64,000 nucleotides of DNA from an uncultured Candidatus Saccharibacteria bacterium (GTDB taxonomy: Bacteria; Patescibacteriota; Minisyncoccia; Phycocordibacterales; UBA2100). Below, one piece after another: positions 5,869-58,924 of the stretch; within the stretch, counting starts at the first letter, position 1, and every line of letters starts with the position of its first letter. The position numbers and the translations under genes were made by a program. The notes under the pieces were generated by a model. That model was given only the letters and a program-made list of their open reading frames with translations. It did no database searches and was not told the origin of the DNA. The DNA lies in contig CAZELA010000001.1 of NCBI GenBank assembly GCA_964512835.1, forward strand, positions 105,372 through 169,371. Direction: 5' to 3'.

Positions 5869-6552
5869 ATGCAGAAATGGATTCAAAATACCTGGCTCGT
5901 CATCTTGGCGATGTGGGAACCATTCCACCGGCTGCTCGTGTCGTTCAAGTGGCCGATCGCATTTGCGGTCGCCGCTATCGGATCGGTCGCGGCGCTCGCG
6001 ATCGTTGGATTCATGTGGTGGGAGGATGCCTTCAAGCACAAGAAGACCGTCGACGAAAAGCGTATCGAGACCGTGCAGAAGCTGAGGGATGATGAGCGGA
6101 CGTATCTCGCGACCGCCATCATTCGCGATGCGATGCTGACATCGGAACCGATCCGCGTACAGGAAGGTGTCGGTTGGGCTGTCTTGAACTATCGCAAGAA
6201 GTTCAACGTAGATATCCCGACCATCGTGAAAAATTCACTCACGATGCTGCCGTTGAATCACAAAGGCGGCGGACCGTTACTCCCGACGAGCAGTCGCTTC
6301 GTGATGAAAGAGGCGAGCGACGGGCAAATCACCGAAGCGTACGCCTTGGCTGACCGCCTCGTCGCGATGCAGGCCGCTGTCCTTTCGGATCCGGCACTTT
6401 CGTGCGCAACACAATATGTGCGCAAGAAGCGGATCACCTGGTCGCCCTCGAAGGAAATCGTCGAGAAATTCGAGTCATCCGAATACAAGGAGGTGCCGAA
6501 GAGCAACGCTCCGAACCCGGGTGACGGCAGGTTCTTCTGCTACGCAAAGTGA
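5869..6552 (+). CDS. hypothetical membrane protein
   Basis: RBS gggggt; two N-terminal TM helices; no recognisable domain. Confidence 0.55.
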   Translation: MQKWIQNTWLVILAMWEPFHRLLVSFKWPIAFAVAAIGSVAALAIVGFMWWEDAFKHKKTVDEKRIETVQKLRDDERTYLATAIIRDAMLTSEPIRVQEGVGWAVLNYRKKFNVDIPTIVKNSLTMLPLNHKGGGPLLPTSSRFVMKEASDGQITEAYALADRLVAMQAAVLSDPALSCATQYVRKKRITWSPSKEIVEKFESSEYKEVPKSNAPNPGDGRFFCYAK

Positions 6553-6573
6553 TCTGACTCACGCTCTTTGATC

Positions 6574-6607
6574 GAGACCGCTACGGTGTAGCGGTCTCTT
6601 TCTTTTG
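6574..6607. terminator. bidirectional terminator between convergent genes
   Basis: GAGACCGCTAC-ggt-GTAGCGGTCTC followed by TTTCTTTTG; it overlaps the stop codon of the minus-strand gene. Confidence 0.65.
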
Positions 6608-7390
6608 TATGAGTTCTGTTTCCAGAAATTGCAGGATGAGCGCCTGTACATCAGCGCGGCCCTCGCCGTAAAAGATGCCGTGACTTTTGTTATCCAGTAT
6701 AACGGCTTTGTTGCGCGGATTCCGTGCGGTCTGCTCCAGAATCGCATTGCCGCTGTCAGGCCATGCAAGCGAATCCGAGTTGCCGTGCACCGTAAGTACC
6801 GGGGCTTTGATCGTATGCAAAATCTCGTGCACGCGCTGCTTACCCTCAAGCAGAAGCCACAGCGCCTTGCCGGGCATATGTTGATAATAAAACTTTCCGA
6901 CGCGTTCGTTCATTTCTTTCTCAGACAGTTTTTTCTCCCAGGTCCTTTTCAGTCTAAGTAGGTAGGACATGAGCGGCAGATTGAACGGGAATCGCATGTG
7001 ATACGGCATAACGGTTATCACGACGGCTTTCGGAGGGAATTCTGCGGCACACAATAGCGCCAAGTATCCGCCGAAACTATGACCGATCAGCGTGAGCGGT
7101 TTGCCGCTTTGGTACGCCTCGCGCACATGCGCCTGCGCTGCGGAATAGATATCGTCGAACGACAAGGGGAGAAGATCGTCGATAGCGGTTCCGTGTCCTG
7201 GCAAGAGCGGCGCTGTCACGTACGCATTCAGTCGTGTTGCAAGATCCTTCGCAAAATCCCTGAACTCATCGGGGGAGCCCGTATAACCGTGGAGAATAAC
7301 AACGCGATTATCCGCGTCGGGATCGCCGACCGCTATCGGGGACGACATCATCATGCAGGGTAGTGTATGGCTGCGCTCATAGCTCAGCAA
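6581..7390 (-). CDS. alpha/beta-hydrolase fold esterase/lipase
   Basis: HGYTGSPDEF and the GHSFGG nucleophile elbow; a later Asp/His is plausible; the true start may be the internal MMMSSP. Confidence 0.75.
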   Translation of the reverse strand: MLSYERSHTLPCMMMSSPIAVGDPDADNRVVILHGYTGSPDEFRDFAKDLATRLNAYVTAPLLPGHGTAIDDLLPLSFDDIYSAAQAHVREAYQSGKPLTLIGHSFGGYLALLCAAEFPPKAVVITVMPYHMRFPFNLPLMSYLLRLKRTWEKKLSEKEMNERVGKFYYQHMPGKALWLLLEGKQRVHEILHTIKAPVLTVHGNSDSLAWPDSGNAILEQTARNPRNKAVILDNKSHGIFYGEGRADVQALILQFLETELIQKKETATP

Positions 7391-52105: not shown

Positions 52106-52570
52106 ATGTCTACAGTGTATGAGGCGCCGTCCATCGACGGATTTATCGACTTGTTTCTCGCGGCGCTTGTGATGCGCGGTAAGCGCGAGGTGTGGGTGCG
52201 CACTGATGCCGCCTATGCGGAGCGTCGGCGGATGTACGCGATGTACGAGTACCTTGATCGAGCAGTCGACGAGTACAAGGAAACGCCGAAGGACGAGGTT
52301 GAAAAAGATTATCTCTACTTCCTGGTGCGACTGCGCAATCACGTTGCGCCGGGCCTCATCGGCTCGTTCGATGAACTGTACGGTTCGATACTGCGAAAGA
52401 TGGCAACTATTGTGTCGGTCGACCTTGTGTACTGCTGGTACTACAAGATCGATCTGCAGAAAGTGACTGCACAATGCTGGCTCGAGCGGGCGCCGGAGCG
52501 CATCCGGAAACTCGCCGAGGAAGCGGCCGACGAATACATGAAGCCGCTCGAAAAGGAACGTGCCGCCTAA
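52106..52570 (+). CDS. hypothetical protein (154 aa)
   Basis: AACGGAGGA RBS; transcribed divergently from dnaE; no domain recognised. Confidence 0.5.
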   Translation: MSTVYEAPSIDGFIDLFLAALVMRGKREVWVRTDAAYAERRRMYAMYEYLDRAVDEYKETPKDEVEKDYLYFLVRLRNHVAPGLIGSFDELYGSILRKMATIVSVDLVYCWYYKIDLQKVTAQCWLERAPERIRKLAEEAADEYMKPLEKERAA

Positions 52571-52905: not shown

Positions 52906-52913
52906 AGTTGGTA

Positions 52914-53546
52914 ATGAGATACGTGATCGGCATCGACGAAGCGGGTCGCGGCGCACTTGCCGGGCCGGTTTGTGTCGGGGCGGTCATGATGCCCTTGGAT
53001 CTTGATTGGCGGGTCGCGTATGCCCTCGTAACGGCGCGGGGTGAACCGCGGCTCCGGGACTCAAAACAGCTCTCGGCGCAGCAGCGAGAGATACTCTACG
53101 AATACATCATCACTCACGGCCGCCTGAAACATGCGGCCGCGTTCGTTGATGCCCCGGTCATTGATTCCATCGGTATCGTGAACGCTGCGCACGAGGCGGC
53201 GGCCGTTGCGCTTTCGCGACTGGGTATCGGTCATGACAAGGCGGAAGTATTGCTCGATGCGGGCCTGCGCGTGCCTGATATGTGGCAGCAGCGCTCGTTT
53301 ATCCGCGGCGACGAAACAGTCCCGGCAATATCGTTTGCGTCGATCATCGCAAAGGTAACGCGCGACCGCCTGATGGAGAGCTTGCCGGAGAGTTTTTCCG
53401 AATATCAATTCAATGAGCACAAGGGCTATGGGACGCTCGCGCACCGTAAAGCGATCGCACGGTCGGGATTGTCGGTACTGCACCGGGCGTCGTTCTGCAC
53501 CCGGCTCACGGGATCTGCCCGAGAGGCCGTTTCGTCCGAGGAATAG
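52914..53546 (+). CDS. rnhB: ribonuclease HII
   Basis: YVIGIDEAGRGALAGPV DEDD motif; a GTG at 52908 is an alternative start. Confidence 0.9.
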   Translation: MRYVIGIDEAGRGALAGPVCVGAVMMPLDLDWRVAYALVTARGEPRLRDSKQLSAQQREILYEYIITHGRLKHAAAFVDAPVIDSIGIVNAAHEAAAVALSRLGIGHDKAEVLLDAGLRVPDMWQQRSFIRGDETVPAISFASIIAKVTRDRLMESLPESFSEYQFNEHKGYGTLAHRKAIARSGLSVLHRASFCTRLTGSAREAVSSEE

Positions 53547-53584: not shown

Positions 53585-53612
53585 TTGCAAAAGGGCTGAT
53601 TATCTGTATAAT
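53585..53612 (+). promoter_or_regulatory. promoter TTGCAA-16-TATAAT, 10 nt before the rpmF ATG
   Basis: TTGCAAaagggctgattatctgTATAATcggccgcactATG. Confidence 0.55.
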
Positions 53613-53622
53613 CGGCCGCACT

Positions 53623-53892
53623 ATGGTAGTACGAATGCGTCGTAACCGATCCCAGACCGCCAAGCGGCGTTCTCATCATGGGCTCACAACCTCCCGCGTC
53701 ACCGCGGACAAGCAGGGCAATACGCACCTGCGACACCGCGTTGATCCTGAGACCGGCATGTACCGCGGCAAAATGATCATAGATGTCGTGGCTCGCGCAA
53801 AGCGACAGCAGCGCCGAGACAAGCGCAAGGAGCAGGAGCTCCGTGCAAGCGGTCAGATCAAGGAAGACAAGGCGACCGAAGCAACCAAATAA
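53623..53892 (+). CDS. rpmF: 50S ribosomal protein L32 with a Lys/Arg-rich C-terminal extension (89 aa)
   Basis: MVVRMRRNRSQTAKRRSHHGL...HLRHRVDPETGMYRGKMII matches the L32 R.RRSH / HLRH..P.TG.YRGK signature; it is hidden inside the longer track ORF 53413..53892. Confidence 0.7.
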   Translation: MVVRMRRNRSQTAKRRSHHGLTTSRVTADKQGNTHLRHRVDPETGMYRGKMIIDVVARAKRQQRRDKRKEQELRASGQIKEDKATEATK

Positions 53893-53897
53893 CAAAC

Positions 53898-53935
53898 AAG
53901 AACAGACCGGCGAAAGCCGGTCTGTTCTTTTAAAT
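53898..53935 (+). terminator. rho-independent terminator
   Basis: AAGAACAGACCGG-cgaaa-GCCGGTCTGTTCTT followed by TTAAAT. Confidence 0.7.
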
Positions 53936-54010
53936 CCACAGTTTTCGGTCCATTCATACGCTGTTTATGTTTTTGCGTGTACACTAGTGAGGTGTCCAGT
54001 TCCTTCGCTT

Positions 54011-54931
54011 ATGGCAAATAGACATCTCGCACGATCAGTAGCACTTCAAGTGCTCTTTGAACGCGACTCCGCGGGCGGGCAGTTGTCTATGGATGATTGT
54101 TTCGGACGATTGGCAGACTATGCCAAGGAGTTCGGTGCGCGAGAGTCCGACATGCCGTTTATGAAGAACCTCCTCCAGACGGCCTGCGCGAAGCAGGGCG
54201 AGATTGACGATGTTATCGTGCGTGCCGCACCGGAGTGGCCGCTCGAGAAAATTGCGGCGATTGATAGAAATATTTTACGCATCGGTCTGACTGAGCTGTT
54301 ATTTGCAGACCGCACACAGGTGCCGGCAAAAGTAGCGATCAATGAAGCGATCGAGCTTGCAAAGGCATTCGGCAGTGCTTCATCGGGCCGCTTCGTAAAC
54401 GGTGTGCTCGGCGCGGTGTATGTGGAACTCGGTGAACCGGGTAAAAACGAAGGCGGGTCGCGCAAAGCACCGATGAATACCGCGAAGATGCCGCTCGAAG
54501 AGCTTGCGGGAGCGGTTGTATTTGCGGAACAAGACGGAGAATACTATCTCGCATTCGTTCACGACATTTTCGGTCACTGGACCATCTCGAAAGGCAAGGT
54601 GGAAGCCGGTGAAGACGTGCAGCAGGGAGCGATTCGCGAGATCAAAGAAGAAATGGGATTGGATATCGAAATTGTCGAAGAGATCGGCGTCAATGAATAC
54701 ATCGCCAATGACTCCAAGATCCAGGGCGGCAAAAAGAAAAAACGCGTCACGTACTTCCTTGCGAAATCACCCTTCACGGATATTAAGCTCGGGCCATCAG
54801 GAGGCCTCGACGATGCACAGTGGTTTCCGCTTGCAGCTGTGGGCGACCTTAACTTTTACGATGACTCGCTGACGAAGATCGTCATTCCGGCGATCAAGGC
54901 GCTCGCAAAGATCCGCGAAGGAAAGAAGTAG
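54011..54931 (+). CDS. nusB: NusB antitermination factor fused to a C-terminal NUDIX hydrolase domain
   Basis: The N-terminal half carries [33 protein letters not shown] (NusB); the C-terminal half carries the Nudix box [23 protein letters not shown]; start trimmed to MANRHLARS. Confidence 0.75.
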   Translation: [306 protein letters not shown]

Positions 54932-54932
54932 G

Positions 54933-55625
54933 GTGCGTATGGATTTCGCACCCTTTGAAGCGAGAATCGGCTACACATTTCGCCGGAAAGAACTGCTTGA
55001 GCAGGCGTTTACGCACCGCTCCTATCTCAACGAGCATCGCGGCAGCGGTCGCGAACATAACGAACGACTCGAATTTTTGGGCGACGCTATTTTGGAACTG
55101 GTCGTTACTGAATTTTTGTTCAATAAATATCCGGACAAACCGGAAGGGGAGCTGACTGCGTTTCGAGCGGCGCTCGTAAATACGGTATCCATTTCCGACG
55201 CGGCACAGTCGCTTGGGATGAATGATTTTTTGCTTCTCAGTAAAGGAGAATCGCGCGATACCGGGCGTGCACGACAGATTATTCTTGCCAATGCGTTTGA
55301 GGCGGTGATCGGTGCGATCCATCTCGATGCAGGTTATCCAGCCTCGCGCGACTTTATTTCGAAACAACTGTTCCATAAAGCCGATGCTGTGGTTGAGCAA
55401 AAGTTGTGGCAGGACGCAAAAAGCAAACTGCAGGAGCTTTCACAAGAAAAGCTGGGCATTACACCCATCTACGAGGTTGTAAGTCAGACCGGGCCTGATC
55501 ACAACAAAGTGTTCGTAACGGGTGTGCGTCTCGGTGCTGAGCGCGTTGCTATCGGCGAAGGACGTTCCAAGCAGGAGAGTGAGCAGGCAGCGGCGGAAAA
55601 GGCGATTGCTGCAAAGGGGTGGTAG
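54933..55625 (+). CDS. rnc: ribonuclease III
   Basis: ERLEFLGDA signature, catalytic domain plus a C-terminal dsRBD. Confidence 0.9.
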   Translation: MRMDFAPFEARIGYTFRRKELLEQAFTHRSYLNEHRGSGREHNERLEFLGDAILELVVTEFLFNKYPDKPEGELTAFRAALVNTVSISDAAQSLGMNDFLLLSKGESRDTGRARQIILANAFEAVIGAIHLDAGYPASRDFISKQLFHKADAVVEQKLWQDAKSKLQELSQEKLGITPIYEVVSQTGPDHNKVFVTGVRLGAERVAIGEGRSKQESEQAAAEKAIAAKGW

Positions 55626-55932: not shown

Positions 55933-56307
55933 ATGTCACCGATAAGTAAGGACTATCTCGGCGAGGTAATCGCCACGGCGTACCTATTGTTTCTAGGGCT
56001 CTTGTTCAGCGGCCTTGTGGCGGTGTTCGCACCGCGCGATGTCTCGCCGCTCGGGCTGTTTCAGGTCGGGTTTGCATTGTATTTCGTTGCGATCGCGACG
56101 GTGAACAAGACAACGTTCGACCTCTCGGCGCTCGCCGTCACGATTGGCGGCCTTGCCATCAACGATTATGGGCTCAAGATCGTCACCGGCATGACTACCG
56201 AACAGTGGTGGGGCATGTTGCTGATCGCTCACGGAATGCCCGTGGCGATCGTGACCATGATCACGCACTACCGTGACGGCATTTTCAAGCGTTCACCGAT
56301 ATTCTGA
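55933..56307 (+). CDS. hypothetical membrane protein (4 TM)
   Basis: GAGGAGGAG RBS. Confidence 0.6.
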   Translation: MSPISKDYLGEVIATAYLLFLGLLFSGLVAVFAPRDVSPLGLFQVGFALYFVAIATVNKTTFDLSALAVTIGGLAINDYGLKIVTGMTTEQWWGMLLIAHGMPVAIVTMITHYRDGIFKRSPIF

Positions 56308-56321
56308 CCCGGAGGAGAAAA

Positions 56322-56636
56322 ATGATGAGAATTGCTAAGATCGTCGGATTGTTCGCGGCGGTGCTCGCCACTGCGTGGGTCGCGTATGCGTTCTCTGCAT
56401 TGAATCAGCCGAGTGCGTCGTGCCGTGCATACGGCGGCGTCGCCGGGGAACGCGCCTGGAATCAGACTACGCCGACTTGTACCTGGACCGAGGCCGGTAA
56501 CAAGGACCTTCCGCCGGTATTCATGGACGGTCACTCGATGAAGCCCGCGATCCATGCGTTTCGCTGGTGCACCGAGCGGAAAGGCAGGTACACGCTCACC
56601 GGCAACAGCATCACCTGCTACCTGCCGAAGGTCTGA
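56322..56636 (+). CDS. small secreted protein (104 aa, 6 Cys)
   Basis: GGAGGAG RBS; signal peptide MMRIAKIVGLFAAVLATAWVAYA. Confidence 0.55.
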   Translation: MMRIAKIVGLFAAVLATAWVAYAFSALNQPSASCRAYGGVAGERAWNQTTPTCTWTEAGNKDLPPVFMDGHSMKPAIHAFRWCTERKGRYTLTGNSITCYLPKV

Positions 56637-56722: not shown

Positions 56723-58924
56723 ATGTATCTGAAGTCCATCGAACTCGCGGGTTTTAAATCGTTCGGCAAAAAGTCCGAGCTTGTTTTTACGTCGTCCATC
56801 GCGAGTATCGTCGGACCAAACGGCAGCGGTAAATCTAACGTGGCCGAAGCATTTCGGTTCGTCTTGGGCGAACAATCGATGAAGAGTATGCGCTCGAAAA
56901 AGGGCGAGGATCTTATTTGGGGCGGTTCGCCAACGCTTCCGCGCGGAAATCGTGCGGGCGTCAAAGTCACGTTCGACAATTCCACTCGACTGTTGGATAT
57001 CGATTTTAAAGAAGTTGCGATTGAACGCATTGTGTACCGCGACGGTCAGAACGAATATCTGATGAACGGCACCGCGGTCCGCTTGAAAGATGTTATCCGC
57101 CTTCTTGCAGGTGCGAACATCGGCGGCTCGGGCTATCAGATTATCTCGCAGGGAGAAGCAGATCGTATCTTGAATGCATCGCCGCGCGAACGTCGCGAAA
57201 TGGTGGAAGATGCGCTCGGCCTCAAGCTCTACCAGCACAAAAAAGCCGAAAGCGAACGCAAGCTCGAGGAAACAGGCATCAATATTGATAAGACGCGTTC
57301 ACTGCGCCGCGAGATTGCACCGCACCTCAACTTTTTGCGTGTGCAGGTAGAAAAGATCGAGAAGGCGCGCGAAATGAAAGAAGAGCTTGCCGCAAAGCTC
57401 GCGGACTACCTTTCTCGAGAGCACGCGTATCTTACCCAGGAAGACGCGCGGCTGTTAGAAGACGCGCGGGCACACGAACATGAGCTGAAGGCGCTCAACG
57501 AGCGTTTGCGTGAGGCATCGGGCAAAAGCGGACGCGCGGGAGACGATGCCGCACAGGAATTGCAGCGTCGCGTACAGGAACTCACGCAGCGTGTGCAGGA
57601 GACGCGCCGCCGTCGCGAAGAGATCACGCGTGAACTCGGCCGTGCCGAAGGGGCGCTTGAAGCAACCAACATCACGGTAGAGAGCATCGTGCCGGTGCCG
57701 CACGTGCGTCAGTTTGTGCACGAGGTAGACGACTCGCTCTCGGGTGCTGAGCGCTCGGGTGATGTGTCGACGATGCGCACGGTCATTACCGACGTGCGCG
57801 GCCGAATCAAGGCATTCGTCGAAGGACTCTCCGGCACCGCCCCCGAAACAAATCAGGAGGTACAGCAGCAGATCGAACGATTGTCAGCGTCGCTGAAGCA
57901 GGTCAATGAAGAAGAAGCACATCTGACAACCGATATCGAAATGGCGCGGGCCGGTATTGCACAGAGCCGCGAAGCGTCGTTTGCCGCTGAACGTGAATCT
58001 GTGGAATTGCAGGGCAAGGTGCGCGAAGTGCGCCAGATGCTCGATTCTGCAAATGCGGCACGCGGACAGCTTTCGGGGCTGCGCCAGCGCTTTGAAGAAG
58101 AAGTGCGCGAAGGTATCGCGCTGATCGGTGCGGCGGTCCACGCGTGGGACAAAAATTCGATACCGGACGGTGCGCTTTCCGAAGAGCGAAACGTGCAAGA
58201 AAAGCGCCGCCGCGAGATCGAACGACTGAAGATCAAGATCGAAGAGAGCGGTATCGGCAACGGCGACGCGATCGTCAAAGAATTTACGCAGACCAAAGAG
58301 CGTGACGAATTTCTGACGCGCGAGCTCGCTGATCTGGAAAAGAGTGCAGAATCCCTCAAAGACATCATTGTCGAACTGGAAAAAACCATCGACGCGCGGT
58401 TCCACGACGGACTCAAGGACATCAACGTGGCACTCAACACCTTTTTTGCAAAGCTGTTCAACGGCGGGGAAGCGAAGTTTATGGTGGAGAAACCGAAGCG
58501 CGCCTCGCGCAAGGACCTCGATGACGACGAAGAACTCGAGGATACTGTTCCCGAAGAAGAGGAGATCTATGCGGGACTTACGGTATCAGTGCATTTGCCG
58601 CGCAAAAAAGTACACGGACTCGAAGTGCTCTCCGGCGGTGAGCGCGCGCTCACATCGATCGCGATGATCTTTGCGATGTCGCAGGTGAATCCGCCGCCGT
58701 TTTTGATCCTGGACGAAACCGATGCTGCACTCGACGAGGCGAACAGCAAGCGCTACGCCGACATGATCCGCGAATTGGGTCAGAAGTCGCAGCTGATTGT
58801 CATCACGCACAACCGCGCAACTATGGCGGCTGCGGGTGAGCTCTACGGCGTCACGATGGGAAGCGACGGCGTATCGAAACTTCTTTCAGTTAAATTTGAA
58901 GAGGCGACCAAGGTTGCAAAGTAG
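56723..58924 (+). CDS. smc: SMC-type chromosome segregation ATPase, short form (733 aa)
   Basis: N-terminal GFKSF...VGPNGSGKSNV Walker A; C-terminal LSGGERALTSIAMIFA..LILDETDAALD signature/Walker B; a coiled-coil middle about 400 aa shorter than canonical SMC. Confidence 0.7.
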   Translation: MYLKSIELAGFKSFGKKSELVFTSSIASIVGPNGSGKSNVAEAFRFVLGEQSMKSMRSKKGEDLIWGGSPTLPRGNRAGVKVTFDNSTRLLDIDFKEVAIERIVYRDGQNEYLMNGTAVRLKDVIRLLAGANIGGSGYQIISQGEADRILNASPRERREMVEDALGLKLYQHKKAESERKLEETGINIDKTRSLRREIAPHLNFLRVQVEKIEKAREMKEELAAKLADYLSREHAYLTQEDARLLEDARAHEHELKALNERLREASGKSGRAGDDAAQELQRRVQELTQRVQETRRRREEITRELGRAEGALEATNITVESIVPVPHVRQFVHEVDDSLSGAERSGDVSTMRTVITDVRGRIKAFVEGLSGTAPETNQEVQQQIERLSASLKQVNEEEAHLTTDIEMARAGIAQSREASFAAERESVELQGKVREVRQMLDSANAARGQLSGLRQRFEEEVREGIALIGAAVHAWDKNSIPDGALSEERNVQEKRRREIERLKIKIEESGIGNGDAIVKEFTQTKERDEFLTRELADLEKSAESLKDIIVELEKTIDARFHDGLKDINVALNTFFAKLFNGGEAKFMVEKPKRASRKDLDDDEELEDTVPEEEEIYAGLTVSVHLPRKKVHGLEVLSGGERALTSIAMIFAMSQVNPPPFLILDETDAALDEANSKRYADMIRELGQKSQLIVITHNRATMAAAGELYGVTMGSDGVSKLLSVKFEEATKVAK

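Follow-up and report, generated by a model that had tools for sequence, protein, structure and literature searches.

Why would NusB, which is regarded as a small, single-domain and near-universal factor, carry a nucleotide-hydrolase fold at its C-terminus? The question is raised by one gene in a stretch of 64,000 nucleotides (64 kb; the window) of contig CAZELA010000001.1, from an uncultured Candidatus Saccharibacteria bacterium. With near certainty this gene is a genuine nusB, occupying the genomic slot of the stand-alone nusB, to which a Nudix domain of the diadenosine polyphosphate (ApnA) hydrolase type is joined by a tether of about 20 residues. The fusion is securely conserved over a deep radiation within the Candidate Phyla Radiation (CPR). 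Public annotation names such proteins "transcription antitermination factor NusB" or "N utilization substance protein B", with both Pfam domains on record, so that the current name hides the second domain. NusB, Nudix hydrolases, Nudix pseudo-enzymes acting as sensors (NrtR) and enzyme-fold accessories of Nus complexes (SuhB) are each already known. A literature search found no publication describing a NusB-Nudix protein, and to our knowledge the transcription machinery of CPR bacteria is almost unstudied.

Both domains lie in a single open reading frame (ORF) on the plus strand (53783-54931), with no stop between them, and a Pfam search found both, at E-values far removed from chance, as expected from an earlier note on the letters alone that had described an in-frame fusion. 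That note also placed the start at the ATG at 54011 rather than at the 5' end of the frame, and three observations support its choice. Homologues of 302-306 residues that cover 98-100% of the query open with M-A-N-R-H, and in most related genomes the match to the NusB profile starts with the first residue of the ORF. Furthermore, the additional 228 nucleotides 5' of 54011 overlap the 3' end of rpmF in another frame and cross a 14-bp hairpin.

The NusB half matches the Pfam family NusB (PF01029) at residues 7-136 (E 4.7e-30, 105 bits against a cut-off of 23.1) and the NCBIfam model TIGR01951 (111 bits against 88.35). In the AlphaFold2 (AF2) model its helices span residues 2-20, 27-41, 45-60, 62-72, 83-98, 106-120 and 125-140, with predicted local distance difference test (pLDDT) values above 90. 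Sequence matches in the PDB are the NusB proteins of T. maritima, M. tuberculosis, E. coli and Aquifex (E 1e-16 to 3e-14), and Foldseek superimposes this half on T. maritima NusB (1tzw; TMt 0.83, root-mean-square deviation (rmsd) 1.8 Å) and on 1eyv (TMt 0.80). Five residues do not vary among 44 diverse fusion proteins: R4, R8, E95, F128 and G131. R4 and R8 belong to the Arg-rich N-terminus, and F128 lies in a KFVNG-type motif where, in our own alignment, it corresponds to E. coli F122, a residue required for BoxA-dependent antitermination (PMC3177189). The determinants of BoxA RNA binding thus appear to be kept, and by analogy with characterized NusB proteins this half would pair with ribosomal protein S10 and bind BoxA RNA on nascent precursor ribosomal RNA (pre-rRNA). 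The fusion shares with canonical NusB its profile, all-helical fold, Arg-rich N-terminus, BoxA-contacting Phe and genomic slot. Canonical NusB, however, stands alone at about 140 residues, whereas the fusion adds a linker headed by GEPGK and a C-terminal Nudix domain of 146 residues.

The Nudix half matches Pfam NUDIX (PF00293) at residues 167-277 (E 1.7e-16, 60.9 bits against a cut-off of 21.1), and its strands and the helix at 203-215 are modeled at a pLDDT of about 95. Relatives were sought with phmmer against the PDB and with Foldseek using the AlphaFold model. By sequence, the best match is an Aquifex diadenosine tetraphosphate (Ap4A) hydrolase (3i7u, aq_158), then M. tuberculosis Rv2985/MutT1, with further matches to the C. 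elegans and human Ap4A hydrolases, Chlamydia CT771 and T. thermophilus Ndx1 (E 2e-08 for 3i7u, 3e-07 for 9cxx, 2e-06 for 1kt9, 3e-06 for 3u53 and 5e-06 for 4ilq). By fold, 3i7u again leads (TMt 0.87, 30% identity), followed by 9cxx, 5ggc, 1vc8, 1ktg and 4ijx; ranks 1-10 are the same proteins as in the sequence search, all top fold matches are Nudix proteins, and the Nudix domain of NrtR takes rank 11. These ApnA hydrolases, which include human NUDT2, the N-terminal domain of M. smegmatis MutT1 and Rv2985, itself named a "Nudix diadenosine polyphosphatase", are 25-32% identical to the fusion and share with it a W-x-x-[PS]-K-G motif before the Nudix box, Tyr and Lys residues of a beta-hairpin and a C-terminal W...Y pair. 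They are stand-alone enzymes or, in the case of MutT1, joined to a histidine-phosphatase domain, and unlike the fusion family they strictly conserve the catalytic Glu.

The subfamily assignment is one of resemblance. The score against the MutT1 profile NF052459 is 38.4 bits for a cut-off of 475 and no Ap4A-hydrolase equivalog is reached, so the fusion cannot be filed as an orthologue. Scores against the RppH profiles NF001936, NF001938 and TIGR02705 are 25.5, 18.7 and 16.8 bits for cut-offs of 118, 116 and 154, and the NudC and MutT profiles likewise stay far below theirs. Identity as RppH is therefore not supported, and "works like RppH", where it is used below, is meant hypothetically. The half is acidic, with a net charge of -7 in the window protein and a mean of -6 across the family.

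Between the domains, pLDDT drops below 50 at residues 147-152, and the two 10-residue blocks of the linker score 53 and 70. The in-frame linkers of relatives range from 13 to 36 residues. For the whole fusion the AF2 model has a mean pLDDT of 92.9 and a predicted TM-score (pTM) of 0.63, with no predicted interdomain interface. The linker junction reads ELGEPGK (residues 139-145; 54425-54445), and GEPGK(D/E) also directly follows the NusB domain in many unfused CPR NusB proteins, where (loci L053-L069) it leads into a low-complexity tail of 20-50 residues rich in Lys, Glu and Asp. It follows that the motif is older than the Nudix domain or has outlasted it, and it may itself be functional.

How widespread is this architecture? 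A search of 5.8 billion proteins (NCBI, JGI, ENA and Logan) supplied the 120 best matches, at 77-92% identity; each is about 300-350 residues long and all 120 carry both Pfam domains. An exhaustive scan of the representatives of 50%-identity clusters gave 99 clusters at E <= 1e-30, and among the matches listed about 60 align over their full length at 31-60% identity to the window protein. Finally, with each GTDB species represented by one genome, a scan yielded 594 relatives, of which the best 80 loci were analyzed. The protein is fused in 52 of these, labeled Kaiser-, Nomura-, Zambryski-, Ryan-, Niyogi- and Komeilibacteria and Paceibacterota; in the remaining 28 NusB stands alone, at 140-192 residues, under labels that include Azam-, Moran-, Yanofsky-, Nealson- and Wildermuthbacteria. 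The best-named relatives are Candidatus Kaiserbacteria and Paceibacterota (Parcubacteria group, Patescibacteria/CPR).

Gene order identifies the fused and unfused genes as occupants of the same place. In both kinds of genome rnhB lies a few hundred bases 5' and rnc begins at or overlaps the nusB stop, an adjacency seen in 52 fused and 28 unfused species, and the order rnhB-rpmF-nusB-rnc is common to the fused relatives. In none of the 28 unfused loci was a Nudix gene of the fusion family found within 6 kb of nusB, so the domain was gained or lost at the 3' end of nusB rather than through merger with a neighbor. A rough neighbor-joining tree of the NusB halves puts fused and unfused proteins largely into separate groups, the exceptions being fused L050 and L052 among the unfused and unfused L071 among the fused. 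L050 (Komeilibacteria label; fused gene at 6001-6912) and L052 (5992-6912) have canonical Nudix halves. That of L050 scores 104 bits against the family profile, compared with about 135-185 for complete orthologues, and L052 was listed only as a spurious fragment. The two may branch at the base of the family or stem from a separate fusion event.

Some apparent variants were set aside. In L003 (6001-6956) and L048 (5992-6546) a break in the NusB half divides the fused gene between two ORFs; most likely these are frameshift errors or pseudogenes rather than natural unfused versions. Proteins that at first appeared to be stand-alone Nudix orthologues (P0208, P0199, P0220, P0152, P0196 and others) look like truncated calls that start in the linker or at the end of NusB. 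P0230 and P0238 (142 residues each; L081, 62-490) are stand-alone Nudix proteins that come very close to the fusion family from the box onward and have N-terminal strands resembling those of MutT-type proteins; the box of P0230 differs from that of the window at four positions. No conclusion about a free-standing relative is drawn from P0230, as its contig (L081) is 601 bp long and may be a chimeric assembly.

Is the attached domain an enzyme? In the window protein, the box fits the consensus GX5EX7REUXEEXGU at every defined position, with E201, R209, E210, E213 and E214 in place, in agreement with the canonical box claimed in the earlier note. The same is true of its closest kin: among the 120 nearest proteins the box is fully canonical in 101, deviates at the non-catalytic G22 alone in 16, and has RK in place of RE in 3, so that the four box Glu residues are kept in 117. 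Further out this pattern dissolves. The species-level relatives L001 and L002 (71% identity) have RK despite their closeness to the window, the full G..E..RE..EE signature occurs in only about 8 of 43 diverse cluster representatives, and all four Glu residues are found in 24 of 51 species-level genome copies. In the 27 incomplete copies the commonest loss changes RE to RK, RV, RA, RI or RS. E210 is present in half of the full-length genome copies (23 of 46), and on a neighbor-joining tree built without the box columns its state changed at least nine times by Fitch parsimony. E210 aligns with E58 of human NUDT2, and the E58A mutant of that enzyme, whose structure (4ijx) is among the Foldseek matches, is inactive on triphosphorylated dinucleotides and RNA (PMC8616924). 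The clearest natural "dead" versions form a subclade (L022, L023, L026 and L028) in which E201, R209 and E210 are lost together (G..V..[NA]K..EE, at about 6580-6660 in each locus) and the non-catalytic invariants are all kept.

Loss of the catalytic Glu has not released the domain from constraint. Mean pairwise identity is 0.64 for the NusB half, 0.53 for the Nudix half and 0.43 for the linker, and among copies without the full Glu set the Nudix half still averages 0.51. Twelve of its residues are invariant (V183, D185, F187, G188, W190, T191, K194, Y230, G265, W271, F272 and Y283), and E213 and E214 are conserved at 89% and 96%. In pairwise alignments W190, K194, Y230, K244, Y248, W271 and Y283 match residues of the Aquifex, mycobacterial, nematode or human enzymes (W271 is Phe in Aquifex), and W190, K194, Y230, K241/K244, Y248, W271 and Y283 are invariant or nearly so in the fusion family. 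In Ap4A hydrolases these positions, we presume, bind the polyphosphate chain and stack the base. A literature search on the roles of Tyr76 and Tyr121 in the C. elegans Ap4A hydrolase found nothing, and adenine stacking by Y230 and Y283 is put forward from pairwise alignments.

From these alignments it is secure that the catalytic glutamate is not what the family conserves and that constraint falls on residues resembling a ligand pocket and on family-specific surface residues. Because about half of the species have another residue in place of E210 and the pocket-type residues are invariant or nearly so, binding rather than hydrolysis is read as the conserved property. We consider it somewhat likely that the family-wide job of the domain is to bind a nucleoside-5'-polyphosphate group; the ligand held in this way is probably a nucleotide or an RNA end. 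The proteins of the window's own clade are probably still hydrolases. The earlier note's suggestion that the fusion couples NusB to a pyrophosphatase is accordingly plausible within this clade and does not extend to the family as a whole. Of the ligands it named, Ap4A and cap-type substrates fit best, whereas Nudix enzymes specific for guanosine tetraphosphate (ppGpp) or nicotinamide adenine dinucleotide (NAD) are not the closest by sequence or by fold.

What, then, would the two halves do together? We infer that they are functionally coupled, and we tentatively favor a Nudix domain that acts as an RNA 5'-end reader or processor tethered to the NusB-S10-BoxA complex. The ligand would be the 5'-triphosphate, or the dinucleoside polyphosphate (NpnN)-capped 5' end, of the same nascent transcript that bears BoxA, and the tethered domain would anchor this end to the antitermination complex. 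Where the box is intact, as in the lineage of the window, the end might be trimmed to a monophosphate, as it is by RppH and NUDT2, whereas catalytically dead variants would clamp it without trimming. Processing or retention of the 5' end of the rRNA leader could in this manner be coupled to antitermination and to cleavage by RNase III. A more specific form of this proposal, to which we give slightly less credence, is that the domain is a built-in reader and eraser of triphosphate or NpnN-capped ends that senses and processes, co-transcriptionally at the rRNA leader, the status of the end or the level of the capping alarmone.

Several considerations lead us to this preference. The BoxA bound by NusB-S10 is part of the 5' leader of pre-rRNA, and a flexible tether of variable length is better suited to reaching a nearby end than to allostery. 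Within the closest subfamily, NUDT2 resembles RppH in trimming triphosphorylated RNA, and the resulting 5'-monophosphate ends license downstream RNases (PMC8616924). In a published proposal (PMC6614801), 5' regions of the transcript stay close to the RNA exit tunnel, held there by the rRNA antitermination complex, until the 3' regions that pair with them emerge. The stem so formed is cut by RNase III, which is encoded next door and is functionally linked to Nus factors according to Bubunenko et al., as cited in PMC5725501.

Other observations weigh against this proposal. The closest relatives act on free dinucleoside polyphosphates, the best match to RppH is weak (25.5 bits against 118), and the acidic Nudix half does not suggest an extended RNA-binding surface. 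Given the pTM and the disordered linker, the model does not inform the arrangement of the domains. The 64-kb window contains no rRNA operon. Moreover, the substrate, binding and activity of the Nudix half are all deduced by comparison, and the assignment of invariant residues to a pocket draws on pairwise alignments.

Two different readings of the Nudix half are each unlikely, and about equally so. In the first, the domain is an alarmone sensor or hydrolase that would bind free Ap4A, Ap5A, Ap6A or a related nucleotide, hydrolyzing it where the box is intact, and its occupancy would modulate NusB, linking rRNA antitermination to stress or nucleotide status with a logic like that of NrtR. The nearest characterized relatives all act on free ApnA or nucleotides, NUDT2-type enzymes are acidic like this domain, retention of pocket-type residues despite loss of E210 would suit a sensor, and the NrtR Nudix domain is itself among the fold matches. 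Allosteric control, however, would have to pass through a disordered linker of 13-36 residues, a poor conduit, with no interface predicted between the domains (pTM 0.63), and the literature search found no link of ApnA to NusB.

In the second, the Nudix fold would be a structural accessory, a scaffold for protein-protein or protein-RNA contacts that stabilizes NusB/S10 in the antitermination complex as a built-in, lineage-specific analogue of SuhB, with any enzymatic activity vestigial. Catalytic residues are indeed dispensable in half of the species, and V183, F187 and G188 of the "VHDxFG" stretch, which are not invariant in Ap4A hydrolases, could form an interface. Yet several of the invariant residues, such as the Lys of WxxPKG and the Tyr residues, coincide with those of active ApnA hydrolases, and retention of the Glu set in 117 of 120 close relatives argues that chemistry still matters there.

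Less probable again is an incidental fusion, in which a housekeeping Ap4A/NpnN hydrolase was joined to nusB for co-expression only and the halves are uncoupled. CPR genomes are compact and their genes often abut or overlap, as do nusB-nudix and rnc, one nucleotide apart, and a disordered linker without a predicted interface is what such a history might leave. But members of the fusion family span a deep radiation, with NusB halves at full-length identities as low as about 27-35%, and none was seen to have reverted to two intact genes, L003 and L048 having the look of frameshifts. Purifying selection would not maintain a purely enzymatic passenger in the roughly half of the species where the catalytic Glu is gone, and the unfused relatives have no neighboring Nudix gene as a possible partner. 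An artefact in which a sequencing or assembly error at about 54400-54500 joined two genes, the danger raised in the earlier note, has a negligible chance of being correct, since independent assemblies share the single-ORF architecture (120 of 120 nearest proteins, about 60 clusters at 50% identity and 52 species genomes) with linkers that are in frame and a conserved GEPGK start.

Known systems offer partial parallels to a tethered 5'-end reader. RppH and NUDT2 are related Nudix enzymes that convert triphosphorylated or capped 5' ends to monophosphates, the activity proposed for the tethered domain; RppH is untethered and its profile matches weakly, and action of the fusion on RNA is a proposal only. 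NrtR, like the fusion, uses a Nudix domain, often with a degenerate box, as the ligand module of a transcription factor that binds nucleic acid. Its partner, however, is a DNA-binding winged helix and it senses ADP-ribose, whereas the fusion has no winged helix-turn-helix and its partner is RNA-binding NusB, which makes the comparison an analogy only. SuhB shows that an enzyme-fold accessory can integrate and stabilize NusB/E on rrn leader RNA in the E. coli antitermination complex (PMC6614801). It is a separate dimer with an inositol-monophosphatase fold, neither a Nudix protein nor fused to NusB. The layout of Dcp2 is analogous, with an N-terminal all-helical domain that binds partners, a hinge and a Nudix domain whose substrates are RNA 5' ends; its helical domain has no homology to NusB. 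Full-length Foldseek superpositions on Dcp2 were rejected as meaningless (rmsd 10-14 Å).

A NusB that carries a nucleotide-binding or hydrolyzing module throughout a lineage would be a natural experiment on what the rRNA antitermination complex needs besides BoxA binding, and it provides a concrete candidate, open to testing, for a link between rRNA synthesis in CPR bacteria and the chemistry of alarmones or RNA 5' ends. The presence of active-looking and degenerate boxes in one orthologous context could help to separate the binding from the catalytic roles of Nudix domains. The fusion as such may come as a mild surprise to transcription specialists, its function being a proposal only. If a 5'-end reader and eraser were confirmed, it would represent a previously unknown way in which the chemistry of an RNA 5' end is linked to processive antitermination and to the maturation of rRNA.

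Does the fusion also act on its own message? A BoxA-like motif, GTTCTTTTAAA, matches the consensus GYTCTTTAANA (PMC5725501) at 10 of 11 positions and overlaps the 3' arm and T-tract of the hairpin, 87 nucleotides 5' of the nusB start. The core GYTCTTT occurs within 60 nucleotides 5' of nusB in 19 of 81 related loci, 18 of them in the fused clade, compared with 25 of 593 other ORFs in a control set that still includes nusB genes (binomial p ~1e-9). In these loci (L001-L050) it lies 7-47 nucleotides 5' of nusB, often at -7 to -16, the Shine-Dalgarno position. BoxA-mediated autoregulation of Nus-factor genes by translational occlusion has been described, for example for E. coli suhB (PMC5725501). 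By analogy, the BoxA-like site suggests autoregulation by NusB/S10, and the NusB half possibly also binds this site in its own leader.

Table 1. Features of the nusB-nudix locus (positions in the window)
Feature	Position	Strand	Evidence or remark
nusB-nudix fusion gene	54011-54931	+	306 residues plus stop; Pfam, TIGR01951, homologues, AF2 model
NusB domain, residues 1-140, seven helices	54011-54430	+	Pfam, TIGR01951, PDB matches, Foldseek
Flexible linker, residues 141-160, GEPGK at start	54431-54490	+	Low pLDDT
Nudix domain, ApnA-hydrolase (NUDT2 / aq_158 / MutT1 N-terminal) type, residues 161-306	54491-54928	+	Pfam, PDB, Foldseek
Nudix box, residues 195-217	54593-54661	+	Fits GX5EX7REUXEEXGU at every defined position
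BoxA-like motif GTTCTTTTAAA	53924-53934	+	10/11 match to GYTCTTTAANA
G+C-rich hairpin, 14 bp, GAAA loop, terminator-like, in the rpmF/nusB gap	53898-53929	.	Consensus match only
rpmF (ribosomal protein L32), 5' neighbor	53623-53892	+	Pfam Ribosomal_L32p, E 3.4e-08
Promoter-like TTGCAA-16-TATAAT before rpmF	53585-53612		Consensus scan
rnhB	52908-53546		Upstream of rpmF
rnc (RNase III)	54933-55625	+	Pfam Ribonucleas_3_3, Ribonuclease_3, dsrm

Locally, the genes follow one another as dnaE (minus strand), an unknown ORF, rnhB, rpmF, nusB-nudix and rnc (Table 1). The stop codon of nusB-nudix (TAG, 54929-54931) and the GTG start of rnc at 54933 are one base apart, and the two genes are probably co-transcribed and translationally coupled. 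The hairpin in front of nusB, terminator-like by consensus only, is a candidate element that may separate the rpmF unit from the nusB-rnc unit or attenuate read-through.

Within the window, whose G+C content is about 56%, there is no second NusB and no other ORF with a Nudix box, and one tRNA is the sole Rfam match. Three ORFs flanking rnhB-rpmF-nusB-rnc (52106-52570, 55933-56307 and 56322-56636, all on the plus strand) have no Pfam match; the two small ones lie 3' of rnc, ahead of an SMC-like gene and a kinase/pyrophosphorylase gene, and the product of 55933-56307 resembles a small multi-pass membrane protein. The SMC-like gene (56723-58924, plus strand) encodes an SMC/RecF/RecN-type ATPase of only 733 residues in which the SMC_N profile is split over residues 2-718, with a coiled coil far shorter than that of a canonical SMC protein of about 1200 residues.

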